Shown: positions 27,178 through 29,238 of the stretch, one piece after another
How the letters are laid out: each line of letters opens with the position of its first letter
Numbering within the stretch: position 1 is the first letter of the stretch
Sequence record: PQ850600.1
Reading direction: 5' to 3' (one strand)
DNA length: 40,352 bases
Source of the DNA: Escherichia phage Dewey
Notes under the pieces: model-generated
Databases searched by the model: none
What the model was told of the DNA's origin: nothing
Seen by the model: only the letters and a program-made list of their open reading frames with translations
Made by a program: the position numbers and the translations under genes

Positions 27178-27504
27178 TCAAATAAGTGGTTTGCTGCCTA
27201 ATTTCATTTTCTGGCGACCAACACAAGTTACACCCATTTCACTGCGTGGCTTGCTGTACCATGTGCGCTGATTCTTGCGCTCAATACGTTGCAGGTTGCT
27301 TTCAATTTGTTCGTGGTATTCAGCCAGCACCGTAAGGTCTATCGGATTCAGTGCGCTTTCTACTCGTGATTTCGGTTTGCGATTCAGCGAGAGAATAGGG
27401 CGGTTAACTGGTTTTGCGCTTACCCCAACCAACAGGGGATTTGCTGCTTTCCATTGAGCCTGTTTCTCTGCGCGACGTTCGCGGCGGCGTGTTTGTGCAT
27501 CCAT
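27178..27504 (-). CDS. N: antitermination protein N (lambda-type)
   Basis: From Met at 27504: MDAQTRRRERRAEKQAQWKAANPLLVGVSAKPVNRPILSLNRKPKSRVESALNPIDLTVLAEYH... matches lambda N almost residue for residue; the 30 upstream in-frame codons are unlikely to be translated. Confidence 0.9.
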   Translation of the reverse strand: MDAQTRRRERRAEKQAQWKAANPLLVGVSAKPVNRPILSLNRKPKSRVESALNPIDLTVLAEYHEQIESNLQRIERKNQRTWYSKPRSEMGVTCVGRQKMKLGSKPLI

Positions 27505-27614
27505 CTGGATTCTCCTGTCAGTTAGCTTTGAGTAACGCGCCGTGATGCTTATCTCCACGGTTGCTGCCTTGCAGCTGCATTTCGCGCTACTCAAAGCCTT
27601 CTGCTTTGAATGCT

Positions 27615-27644
27615 GCCCTTCTTCAGGGCTTAATTTTTAAGAGC
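27615..27644 (-). promoter_or_regulatory. nutL (boxA plus boxB)
   Basis: minus strand GCTCTTAAAAATTAA followed by GCCCTGAAGAAGGGC, the lambda nutL boxB hairpin. Confidence 0.8.
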
Positions 27645-27780
27645 CTCACCTTCATGGTGGTTAGTGCGTCCTGCTGATGGCTAAATAGTACGATTTGTAC
27701 TTTATCGAGTCAATACAAAATGTTCTAAATATAATTAGTTTTTTATAACGCTTTGTATTTAATGGGTTTATATTTTGGAA
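27645..27780 (-). promoter_or_regulatory. putative OL/PL region
   Basis: AT-rich segment between the cI terminator and nutL; AGTACgatttGTACT dyad resembles motifs near cro. Confidence 0.4.
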
Positions 27781-27806
27781 AAAGAAAACCCGACGCTAAG
27801 GTCGGG
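27781..27806 (-). terminator. intrinsic terminator downstream of cI
   Basis: minus strand CCCGAC-cttagc-GTCGGG followed by TTTTCTTTTT; lies where lambda has rexA/rexB plus terminator. Confidence 0.6.
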
Positions 27807-27838
27807 TTATTGTTGTGTGTTTTAGAGTTGTGAGGCTG

Positions 27839-28498
27839 TTAACTAAATGTCTCTTCAGGCCACTGGCTGGCGATAACTTTCCCTACTACGGAACAGCTAT
27901 CATTGCATGGAATCATTGGATATTGCGGGTTTAGTGGCTGTAGGAACACCTGACCGCTATCCCTGATCAGTTTCTTGAAGGTAAACTCGTCACCACCAAG
28001 TCTGGCTATGCAGAAATCACCTGGCTCAACAGCCTGCTCAGGGTCAACGAGAATTAACATCCCGTCAGGAAAGCTTGGCTTGGATCCTGTTGGCGCGGTC
28101 ATGGAATTACCTTCAACTTCAAGCCAGAACGCACAATCACTGGCTTTTTTGGTTGTGCTGACCCATCTCTCCGCATCACCTTTGGTAAAGGTTCTAAGCT
28201 CAGGCGAGAACATCCCGGCCTGAACATGAGAAAAAACAGGGTACTCATATTGTTTTTTAACGGGGGCAGATGAGTATTCGCCAACAGGTGAAAATGTACC
28301 GTCGTGGTTGAATGAGACGTTATCAATACCAAGGTATTTAAACACCACACCAATCTCGTCAAGAGATGGATGACGAGATCCGCGCAACCAGTGACCAATT
28401 CCACCCTGCGTCATACCAAGCTCTTCAGCTAACTTCTCTTGAGTTATGCCGAGCTCTTTCATTCTGGATCTAGCCAGTTCATACCATTTCATTTTCAT
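27839..28498 (-). CDS. cI: CI-type repressor: heterologous HTH N-terminal domain, lambda-like C-terminal S24/LexA-type domain
   Basis: C-terminal about 130 aa ([39 protein letters not shown]...[48 protein letters not shown]...) matches lambda CI; N-terminal domain ([40 protein letters not shown]) does not; start taken at 28498. Confidence 0.85.
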
Positions 28499-28609
28499 AC
28501 CCTTATTATTACGCTCTGTACTAAAACCATCCATGTACAAGATGTATTTTTTGTTTGCATTCTAAAAGTACATATCGTATTATTGTTTCATGGTTACTAT
28601 GGAGGGCAT
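28499..28609. promoter_or_regulatory. putative OR / PRM / PR region
   Basis: divergent cI-cro intergenic region with repeated GTAC-containing motifs (CTGTACTAAAA, ATGTACAAGATGTA, AAAAGTACATATCGTA); candidate PR -35 TTGCAT, 17-nt spacer, -10 TATTAT upstream of cro. Confidence 0.5.
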
Positions 28610-28825
28610 ATGAGCAACCTACGAAAATATCGAGAGTCACTGAATATCTCTCAAACAACACTTGCTAAGGCAGTTGGATGCACACAGGGAGCTATCGGAC
28701 ATTGGGAATCTGGTCGTCGCTTCCCAGACCTTAAAACATGCCGTGCTCTTGTTGAGTGCCTAAACAAGTTAGGCGCAAAAGTCAGTCTTGATGACGTGTT
28801 CCCTCCGGAACACAAAGCCGCTTAA
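28610..28825 (+). CDS. cro: Cro-like HTH repressor
   Basis: 71 aa from ATG 28610 (GGAGGG RBS); SQTTLAKAVGCTQGAIGHWESG HTH; divergent from cI. Confidence 0.8.
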   Translation: MSNLRKYRESLNISQTTLAKAVGCTQGAIGHWESGRRFPDLKTCRALVECLNKLGAKVSLDDVFPPEHKAA

Positions 28826-28834
28826 GACATTCCA

Positions 28835-28865
28835 GCTCTTACACATTCCAGCCCTGAAAAAGGGC
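28835..28865 (+). promoter_or_regulatory. nutR (boxA plus boxB), followed by tR1/PRE region
   Basis: GCTCTTACACATTCCA then GCCCTGAAAAAGGGC, matching lambda nutR as recalled. Confidence 0.8.
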
Positions 28866-28944
28866 ATCAAATTAAACCACACCTATGGTGTATGCATTTA
28901 TTTGCATACATTCAATCAATTGTTATCTAAGGAAATACTTACAT

Positions 28945-29238
28945 ATGCAACTTACAAGTACTCGCAAGAAAGCGAATGCAATTACAAGCAACATCCTGAA
29001 TCGAATTGCTGTACGTGGTCAGCGAAAGGTTGCCGACGCGTTAGGGATTAATGAATCGCAAATTTCGCGATGGAAAGACAGCTTCATCCCCAAAATGGGA
29101 ATGCTTCTTGCTGTTCTTGAATGGGGCGTCGTTGACGACGATATGGCTCGATTGGCACGACAAGTTGCTTCGATTCTCACCAATAAAAAACGCCCGGCGG
29201 CAACCGAGCGTTCTGATCAAATACAAATGGAATTTTAA
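28945..29238 (+). CDS. cII: transcriptional activator CII (lambda-type)
   Basis: 97 aa from ATG 28945; ...ESQISRWKDSFIPKMGMLLAVLEWGVVDDDMARLARQVASILTNKKRPAATERSDQIQMEF closely matches lambda CII. Confidence 0.9.
   Translation: MQLTSTRKKANAITSNILNRIAVRGQRKVADALGINESQISRWKDSFIPKMGMLLAVLEWGVVDDDMARLARQVASILTNKKRPAATERSDQIQMEF

Follow-up and report, generated by a model that had tools for sequence, protein, structure and literature searches.

The region spanning positions 27178-29238 of the genome of Escherichia phage Dewey (sequence record PQ850600.1; the whole analysed stretch of 40,352 nucleotides (nt) is hereafter referred to as the window) is very probably the only immunity (immC) region of a temperate, P22-like Escherichia coli podovirus, built from two already known modules, i.e., a frame of the lambda/HK542 type and an immunity insert of the VT2-Sakai/Nil2/Stx2-II type (Stx, Shiga toxin). 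On the basis of the alignments, the frame module, which embeds N, nutL, nutR/tR1, cII, and the oop terminator, is of the lambda type, in the variant carried by the wild phage HK542. The insert module (27680-28831), containing the left operators OL1-3 with PL, the terminator timm, cI, the right operators OR1-3 with PRM and PR, and cro, can be assigned to the VT2-Sakai/Nil2/Stx2-II immunity type and corresponds, by similarity, to CI2c with Cro4 in the typing scheme of Stx phages. The comparisons also indicate that the hybrid cI gene is neither new nor particular to Dewey; it belongs to a published and common immunity type and is an expression of ordinary lambdoid mosaicism.

Results

Gene order and mosaic structure of the region

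The window was analysed using PHROGs and Pfam, BLASTN and tblastn searches, and promoter and terminator scans. The genes and sites of the region follow one another, from left to right, in the same order as in lambda (N, nutL, PL/OL1-3, terminator, cI, OR3-1/PR, cro, nutR, cII). Pfam supports each of N, CI, Cro, and CII, PHROGs assigns them to the same functional families, and the five open reading frames (ORFs) listed in the immunity region are all uninterrupted and of full length; no accessory gene is present between cI and the terminator in the insert. Gene order, homologies, six operators, promoter- and terminator-like sites, and an intact Ala-Gly site with a Ser/Lys dyad are directly observable in the DNA.

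Identities with lambda were obtained by BLASTN, and the finer intervals (Table 1) were drawn from gapped alignments. The segment 27203-27679 shares 82.7% identity (with gaps) with lambda, most of the N coding part being near-identical, and the segment 28832-29234 shares 79% overall; between them (27680-28831), the BLASTN matches to lambda are limited to 27781-27816 and 27845-28249. An earlier note, made from the letters of the sequence, had proposed a heterologous specificity (CI DNA-binding domain, OL, OR, and Cro) inside a lambda-type N/nut/cII frame, and this proposal is supported by the mosaic map: no nucleotide homology with lambda exists in 27680-27780 or 28250-28831, Cro shares just 20/77 aligned identities with its lambda counterpart, and the junction within cI falls sharply at 28249/28250, i.e., at about residue 101 of lambda CI, in the linker. 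The lambda CI N-terminal domain, the 17-mer operators of the TATCACCGC... kind, and the lambda Cro that characterize imm lambda are therefore missing from the window. The same note was right in stating that rexA and rexB are absent (tblastn of lambda RexA and RexB over the whole window gave no match at E<=1) and that cI is directly followed by a terminator, whose stem lies only 30 nt past the cI stop at 27839. As for its claim that N, the nut sites, CII, and the CI C-terminal domain match lambda, the CI C-terminal domain, both boxB, and N residues 1-86 do so, but the N-terminal 52 residues of CII and the last ~20 residues of N do not. According to the alignments, the lambda-type frame is present in its HK542 variant and not in the form of lambda itself, which explains why the N leader, the C-terminus of N, and the 5' half of cII are not lambda-like.

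The left boundary of the insert coincides with a 14-mer, GCGTCCTGCTGATG, located where the PL transcript begins and common to lambda, HK542, VT2-Sakai, and the window. The right one is located a few bases past the cro stop, before boxA. At this junction between a Sakai-type cro and a lambda-type nutR, boxA is flanked by a 10-bp direct repeat, ACATTCCAGC (28827-28836 and 28843-28852), of which phage Louie has a slightly different version; the repeat could be a recombination scar.

A two-part cI gene

The cI junction maps to the linker, a short distance upstream of the region with the cleavage site. From Tyr-Glu-Tyr-Pro onward, the protein is the same as lambda CI 101-236 except for S139C, E217D, and G236S (133/136 identities; the lambda residue numbers of these substitutions were counted by hand from the lambda sequence). 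The motifs VQAGMF, GNSM, and FTFKK align, in comparisons with PDB entries, with lambda A111-G112, S149, and K192 (in PDB 8gmu, the K192 position is occupied by Ala), and the whole domain is ~98% identical to the solved lambda CI structures (3bdn, 8gmu), with E values from 1e-96 to 1e-64. With a helix-turn-helix (HTH) and an S24 domain, the Ala-Gly site, and the Ser/Lys dyad, the protein can be classified from its sequence as a LexA/CI-type (peptidase S24) repressor, and the degree of identity qualifies its C-terminal part as a predicted lambda-type dimerisation, cooperativity, and cleavage domain.

The other part of the gene has a different affiliation. In a forced alignment, the N-terminal region shares 31-53% nucleotide identity with lambda, whereas its 83 amino acids (aa) are 96.4% identical, in tblastn, to those of Nil2, Stx1 phage, Stx2-II, PA phages, and numerous further Stx phages, and the cI 5' part shares 94-95% nucleotide identity with VT2-Sakai/Nil2. 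The alignments also revealed that, in the cI of Stx phages (Nil2, VT2-Sakai, Stx1 phage), a lambda-like 3' part is joined at the same point as in the window, and they already exclude a VT2-Sakai-type cI devoid of a lambda-like C-terminal domain. Over the 411-nt C-terminal region, the identities are 93.2% between the window and lambda, 93.7% between the window and HK542, 91.5% between the window and VT2-Sakai, and 92.9% between VT2-Sakai and lambda; the window, VT2-Sakai, and lambda lineages of this domain are thus about equidistant (91.5-93.7%), and the chimeric cI is therefore an old property shared within this repressor type, which was not made in Dewey. For the same reason, a recent import of the C-terminal domain from a lambda-immunity phage was ruled out.

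When 5.8 billion proteins were searched using only the C-terminal domain, the lambda-type domain (60-100% identity) was retrieved on at least three abundant N-terminal families, i.e., that of the window, that of lambda, and a third one found in Salmonella and E. coli, plus a few minor ones; the cluster to which CI belongs comprises 1,686 member sequences. To judge from these combinations, the CI linker is a recurrent point of domain swapping.

Different starts have been annotated for cI. The 231-aa version reported in Louie, in the Stx1 phage, and by PGAP begins at ATG 28534, and the Nil2 annotation uses ATG 28492. With a start at ATG 28534, the coding sequence would include OR3 and a portion of OR2, and this start is thus likely too far upstream; OR3 lies upstream of both ATG 28498 and ATG 28492. 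A TAATAA hexamer is found 7 nt upstream of ATG 28498, and AAGGG 7 nt upstream of ATG 28492; probably, either ATG 28498 (a possible leaderless PRM start) or ATG 28492 is more plausible than 28534. At the other end of the gene, the timm-like terminator consists of a stem-loop (27808-27787) followed by the T-run TTTTCTTTTT.

Operators, promoters, and Cro

Six 17-bp dyads with the pattern A-x-TAC-N5-GTA-x-T were found in the OL and OR regions. They pair one-to-one with the putative operators of the Stx1 phage and with the VT2-Sakai set (Table S1, PMC10742460), from which they differ by 1-3 changes each. The 40-kb window contains nine exact TAC-N5-GTA matches, of which four are located within these two ~100-bp regions. 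When the 40,352 bp were scanned with a matrix of symmetrised weights, built only from the six published VT2-Sakai operators, the six sites occupied the top six ranks (scores 13.8-20.6), the next best site scoring 12.0. The centre-to-centre distances are 25 bp (OL1-OL2), 33 bp (OL2-OL3), 26 bp (OR3-OR2), and 33 bp (OR2-OR1), within 1 bp of those of the Stx1 phage (26/32 in OR, 25/33 in OL). Three sites in OR and another three in OL overlapping the predicted PL and PR are, therefore, present, as in the VT2-Sakai (CI2c-Cro4) type.

Cro is of the all-helical HTH_3 type and shares 70 of its 71 residues with Nil2 Cro. Its HTH segment (TQGAIGHWESGRR) is nearly identical to that of CI, which fits the binding of both proteins to the same operators. 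The cI-cro intergenic region (28499-28609) is 84.5% identical to that of VT2-Sakai/Nil2, vs 94-95% for the cI 5' part and 97.7% for cro; on these values, divergence has been faster in the control DNA than in the proteins predicted to read it.

The N, nut, and cII frame

Residues 1-86 of N are those of lambda N save for K65E, the first 64 being fully identical, but the last ~20 residues are those of the HK542 variant. Accordingly, the segment 27177-27679, which comprises N, its leader, and nutL up to the PL +1, shares 98.6% nucleotide identity with HK542. At least three unrelated versions of the N leader exist between nutL and the N ribosome-binding site, i.e., that of lambda, that of HK542 (which is the one in the window), and that of Louie. 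In lambda, this stretch carries an RNase III processing site. The window contains the elements of lambda N/nut antitermination, namely, an N protein with an arginine-rich motif and boxA-boxB pairs downstream of both PL and PR.

At the other side of the insert, the 45 C-terminal residues of CII are almost those of lambda (43/45), whereas the 52 N-terminal ones, which include the HTH, share 24/52 identities with it. The cII 5' half (up to about 29095) represents the HK542 allele, and the stretch from nutR to this half is 96.2% identical to HK542. The putative CII-binding site of PRE lies as far from the cII ATG as the lambda TTGC-N6-TTGC does, its second repeat being TTGT and not TTGC. A Phage_CII domain together with a PRE-type site within the cII 5' end thus assigns the gene, from its sequence, to the lambda CII family. 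The cII 5' half (28948-29095), with the HTH and the PRE -35/CII site, is an HK542 allele in Dewey and a lambda allele in Louie; this pattern points to a second intragenic swap of a DNA-binding half along with its target site. A second, perfect TTGC-N6-TTGC is located at 28978-28991 (- strand), 24 bp downstream of the PRE-homologous site within cII. Another similar sequence, TTGCGAGCACTTGC at 35290-35303 (- strand), resembles the PRE site and might be a candidate paQ-like CII-dependent antisense promoter. TTGC-N6-TTGY is not enriched in the window (10 found vs 6.6 expected), and only the positions of these sites are informative. Lastly, the antisense hairpin in the cII 3' end occupies what we take to be the position of the lambda oop RNA terminator.

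Table 1. Features of the Dewey immunity region and intervals of homology with lambda.
Feature	Position	Strand	Basis and remarks
N antiterminator gene, 108 aa	27504..27178	-	Pfam N36 E=1.5e-26; ORF list; alignment with lambda N
N C-terminus	27203-27250	-	diverged from lambda
Most of N and its ribosome-binding site	27250-27527	-	near-identical to lambda
N leader segment without lambda homology, 68 bp	27528-27595	-	gapped BLASTN; shorter than that of lambda; HK542 type
nutL to first base of PL transcript	27596-27679	-	~97% to lambda
nutL boxB GCCCTGAAGAAGGGC	27615-27629	-	identical to lambda
nutL boxA GGCTCTTA	27638-27645	-	7/8 to lambda CGCTCTTA; compared with lambda and HK542 annotation
Left junction, 14-mer at PL transcript start	27666-27679	.	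lambda homology stops at 27679
OL/PL	27680-27780	.	no lambda homology
PL promoter-like site (TTGACT, 17-nt spacer, TACTAT)	27713-27685	-	promoter scan; over OL1/OL2
OL1 TAGTACGATTTGTACTT	27686-27702	.	match to Stx1-phage and published VT2-Sakai operators; matrix scan
OL2 CAATACAAAATGTTCTA	27711-27727	.	as OL1
OL3 TATAACGCTTTGTATTT	27744-27760	.	as OL1
timm-like intrinsic terminator of cI transcript	27779..27816	-	27781-27816 32/36 (89%) to lambda timm; terminator scan
cI	28498..27839	-	Pfam HTH_3 E=8e-11 (residues 10-57), Peptidase_S24 E=9e-29 (residues 86-208)
cI 3' part: linker, cleavage site, S24 C-terminal domain, lambda type	27839..28249	-	BLASTN, PDB matches, protein alignment
cI 3' part, interval matched in lambda	27845-28249 (405 nt)	-	93.8% to lambda, gap-free
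cI 5' part: HTH DNA-binding domain, VT2-Sakai/Nil2 type (CI2c)	28250..28498	-	Pfam HTH_3; tblastn; nt alignment
cI 5' part, OR, cro	28250-28831	.	no lambda homology
OR3 TATTACGCTCTGTACTA	28507-28523	.	as OL1
OR2 ATGTACAAGATGTATTT	28533-28549	.	as OL1
OR1 AAGTACATATCGTATTA	28566-28582	.	as OL1
PR promoter-like site (TTTGCA, 18-nt spacer, TATTAT)	28554-28583	+	promoter scan; -10 over OR1
cro, 71 aa	28610-28825	+	Pfam HTH_3; PDB best 28tn, then P22 C2 N-terminal domain
Right junction and nutR	28826-28865	+	VT2-Sakai homology stops at cro stop 28825; lambda homology from 28832
nutR, tR1, cII leader	28832-28947	+	~99% to lambda
nutR boxA AGCTCTTA	28834-28841	+	7/8 to lambda
nutR boxB	28851-28865	+	identical to lambda
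cII, 97 aa	28945-29238	+	Pfam Phage_CII PF05269 E=8e-46
cII 5' half	28948-29095	+	about half of bases same as lambda
Putative CII-binding site of PRE, TTGCGAGTACTTGT (TTGC-GAGTAC-TTGT)	28954-28967	-	HK542 annotation (same sequence there); pattern search
cII 3' half	29096-29234	+	~92% to lambda
Terminator hairpin, antisense, in lambda-like cII 3' end	29187-29214	-	terminator scan; stretch ~92% to lambda

Comparison with known systems and occurrence

Nil2, VT2-Sakai, and the Stx1 phage of strain Morioka V526 share 92.8% identity with the window over 27839-28825 (cI, OR, and cro) and 78% over the OL region. VT2-Sakai, Stx2 phage II, this Stx1 phage, and Nil2 resemble the window in the cI junction, Cro, the operators, and the 14-mer at the PL start; however, phages of the VT2-Sakai type have an N resembling that of HK97, nut sites of their own, and a CII resembling that of HK022, and they possess orf22 between cI and the terminator, which the window lacks. 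The virion differs as well, since they are Stx short-tailed phages (Traversvirus), whereas the window contains a P22-like virion module. Lambda, in turn, shares with the window the gene order, N 1-86, both boxB, the tR1 region, timm, CI 101-236 (with the three substitutions), and the 45 C-terminal residues of CII, but it has rexA/rexB, its CI N-terminal domain, OL, OR, and Cro are unrelated, and its N leader, the C-terminal end of its N, and the 5' half of its cII are different. The immunity region of HK542 (EF120458) has been deposited with full feature annotation; this phage and its relatives HK244, HK544, CL707, and mEp332 are wild lambda-immunity phages (GenBank EF120455-EF120459). The C-terminal domain of HK542 cI is 94.3% identical to that of the window over 405 nt, but HK542 has lambda operators, a lambda CI N-terminal domain, a lambda Cro, and two cargo genes replacing rex.

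The combination of heterologous immunity specificity and a lambda frame is familiar from laboratory hybrids such as lambda imm434 and lambda imm21, and chimeric repressors have been engineered by swapping the DNA-binding domain at the linker and keeping the lambda C-terminal oligomerisation/cleavage domain. Differently from these constructs, the arrangement of the window is natural and widespread, and its modules are delimited by the start of the PL transcript and the cro stop. The full arrangement (Sakai-type immunity, lambda/HK542 frame, and no cargo) is present in four sequenced phages, i.e., Louie (PQ850616), vB_EcoP-683R2, phi458, and vB_EcoP-720R6, and in 108 of 5,426 complete E. coli genomes (about 2%); in these phages and prophages, 81-97% of the query is covered, with ~98-99% identity. 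Louie, which also has the P22-like virion genes of the window, is 96-99% identical in the region and yet its cII 5' half is the lambda allele and its N leader a third version; evidently, such short segments are exchanged among close relatives.

The repressor type has been described previously. Smith et al. 2012 (PMC3430580) defined the repressor class CI2c for Stx2 phage II, 1717, YYZ-2008, and VT2-Sa, and reported that the C-terminus, and not the N-terminus, is common to lambda CI and CI2c, and that cro4 accompanies CI2c. According to PMC10742460, a high C-terminal and a low N-terminal homology between the VT2-Sa and lambda repressors had been noticed by Fattah et al. 2000. A paper on Phi24B deals with another immunity type, that of 933W, and has no bearing on the region.

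Neighbouring genes

The whole window is the genome of a P22-like E. coli podovirus, whose nearest relatives are Louie, CurroJimenez_Bas106, IME10, and APC_JM3.2. Only ~130 bp (14957-15086) separate the ejection-protein gene from the tailspike gene, leaving no room for a second immunity region immI (mnt/arc/ant); 27178-29238 is thus the sole immunity region of the phage. Genes for an HNH endonuclease, a replication initiator, and a DnaC-like loader are located 3' of cII. The HNH endonuclease gene (29260-30060; 266 aa, phrog_16986) separates cII from the replication-initiator gene, at a place where O comes directly in lambda; Louie shares it, and a different ORF of 90 aa takes its position in an E. 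coli prophage that carries the same immunity region. On the opposite side, a 156-aa ORF (26699-27169, - strand) lies directly downstream of N and matches phrog_1636 (unknown function) over its full length; no Pfam domain was assigned to it, and it resembles lambda SieB only weakly and not significantly (E=0.26). This was also the best SieB match when lambda SieB, VT2-Sakai orf22, and HK542c104/105 were searched against the window by tblastn; nothing significant was retrieved (best HK542c104 E=0.13). An Rfam scan of 26000-31000 gave no match at E<=1, hence no curated RNA family over nut, oop, or the leader.

Discussion

Proposed working of the switch

From lambda biology, we infer that the switch might work as follows. 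Through their Sakai-type HTH, CI dimers would occupy the 17-bp TAC-N5-GTA dyads and thus shut PL and PR. The lambda-type C-terminal domain would mediate dimerisation, pairwise cooperativity, and, probably, looping between OL and OR (owing to the absence of rex, only ~0.9 kb separates the two); this domain would also allow RecA-stimulated self-cleavage for SOS induction. CI at OR2 would activate PRM; since the centre of OR2 lies ~43 bp upstream of ATG 28498 (at about -43) and TAATAA 7 nt upstream of it, PRM could give a leaderless cI mRNA as in lambda, and its transcript would be leaderless or nearly so. The AAGGG upstream of ATG 28492 could serve PRE transcripts, which CII would activate at TTGC-N6-TTGT within the cII 5' end. 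Lytic growth would follow from the occupation of the same operators by Cro, N would act at the lambda-type boxB hairpins, and the antisense terminator in the cII 3' end is expected to work as in lambda.

On the basis of this organization, Dewey is predicted to be homoimmune with VT2-Sakai-type phages. Toward lambda, no prediction of immunity is offered: operators and DNA-binding domain differ, yet cross-immunity between lambda and VT2-Sa is reported in PMC10742460. In the same paper, lambda CI bound VT2-Sa operators weakly, with an apparent dissociation constant (Kd) of 3.7-6.4 uM vs 0.2-3 uM on its own operators.

Alternative interpretations

Some observations weigh against the assignment of the region to a functional lambda-like switch with VT2-Sakai specificity. 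Operator occupancy, the PRM start, and cooperativity are predictions from the sequence; no PRM hexamers passed the promoter scan; the OR1-OR2 distance is 33 bp vs 24 bp in lambda, and lambda-style pairwise cooperativity at OR is, therefore, not assured. Moreover, the divergence of the OR intergenic region from VT2-Sakai (84.5% identity) and the 1-3 changes in each operator do not guarantee full homoimmunity with Sakai-type phages, and, if the cross-immunity that PMC10742460 ascribes to Fattah et al. 2000 is correct, a simple heteroimmune picture would be incomplete. The divergence of the operators and of the OR spacers, together with three substitutions in the CI N-terminal domain (D47S, E48D, and V61I, numbered from Met 28498 and given as window residue, then Nil2 residue), might even suggest that drift has created a new sub-specificity distinct from VT2-Sakai. 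We regard this as unlikely, since the HTH/recognition-helix region of CI is identical to the Nil2/VT2-Sakai type, Cro differs from Nil2 Cro at one residue, and the invariant operator positions A5, C6, G12, T13, and T16 are kept in all six sites, most changes affecting positions, central or outer, at which the six sites also differ from one another (position 4 of OR2 being an exception).

The sharp loss of lambda homology at 28249/28250, in a frame matching that of a lambda-immunity phage such as HK542, might also recall a recent event in the Dewey lineage, in which a crossover within cI between a lambda-immunity phage and a heterologous one generated a new immunity combination. This scenario is very improbable: Nil2, VT2-Sakai, and the Stx1 phage have the identical junction and a lambda-like domain, the C-terminal domain of the window is no closer to lambda/HK542 (93.2-93.7%) than that of VT2-Sakai is to lambda (92.9%), the domain is found on at least three abundant N-terminal families in public proteins, and the chimera was described in 2012 (PMC3430580) and, according to PMC10742460, in 2000. 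The shared junction and the equidistant lineages thus already refute a recent crossover as the origin of the chimeric cI. Hardly credible at all is the idea that the region is a decayed remnant, no longer able to maintain lysogeny. Such a condition is exemplified by the VT2-Sakai record (NC_000902), in which cI is broken into two ORFs (2401-3096) by a stop-codon single-nucleotide polymorphism linked to a non-inducible prophage (Smith et al. 2012, PMC3430580), and rex-like cargo is missing from the window; however, rex is an accessory function outside the switch, the five ORFs of Dewey are intact, with catalytic and cleavage motifs present, and near-identical regions occur in plaque-forming isolates, e.g., Louie, which was obtained from sewage. 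The two-module immunity region of VT2-Sakai specificity remains, therefore, the interpretation that we favor.

Significance

As a discovery, the region carries little weight; its use lies in annotation, since Dewey can be assigned to the VT2-Sakai (CI2c/Cro4) immunity group, the operators can be placed, and the 231-aa cI start appears questionable. It is also a clean textbook case of lambdoid module exchange, with junctions at the PL transcript start, in the CI linker, at the cro stop, and in the middle of cII. Since the C-terminal domain is almost identical to that of lambda and is common to at least three N-terminal families, it is conceivable, although rather doubtful, that a cell harboring two such prophages contains mixed dimers, tetramers, or octamers built from repressors that differ in immunity type. 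If this were true, cross-immunity or mutual destabilisation might arise between formally heteroimmune phages, and the cross-immunity between lambda and VT2-Sa ascribed to Fattah et al. 2000 in PMC10742460 could be accounted for. The common C-terminal domain would thus matter only if mixed repressor oligomers affect the stability of prophages or the induction of Shiga-toxin phages.

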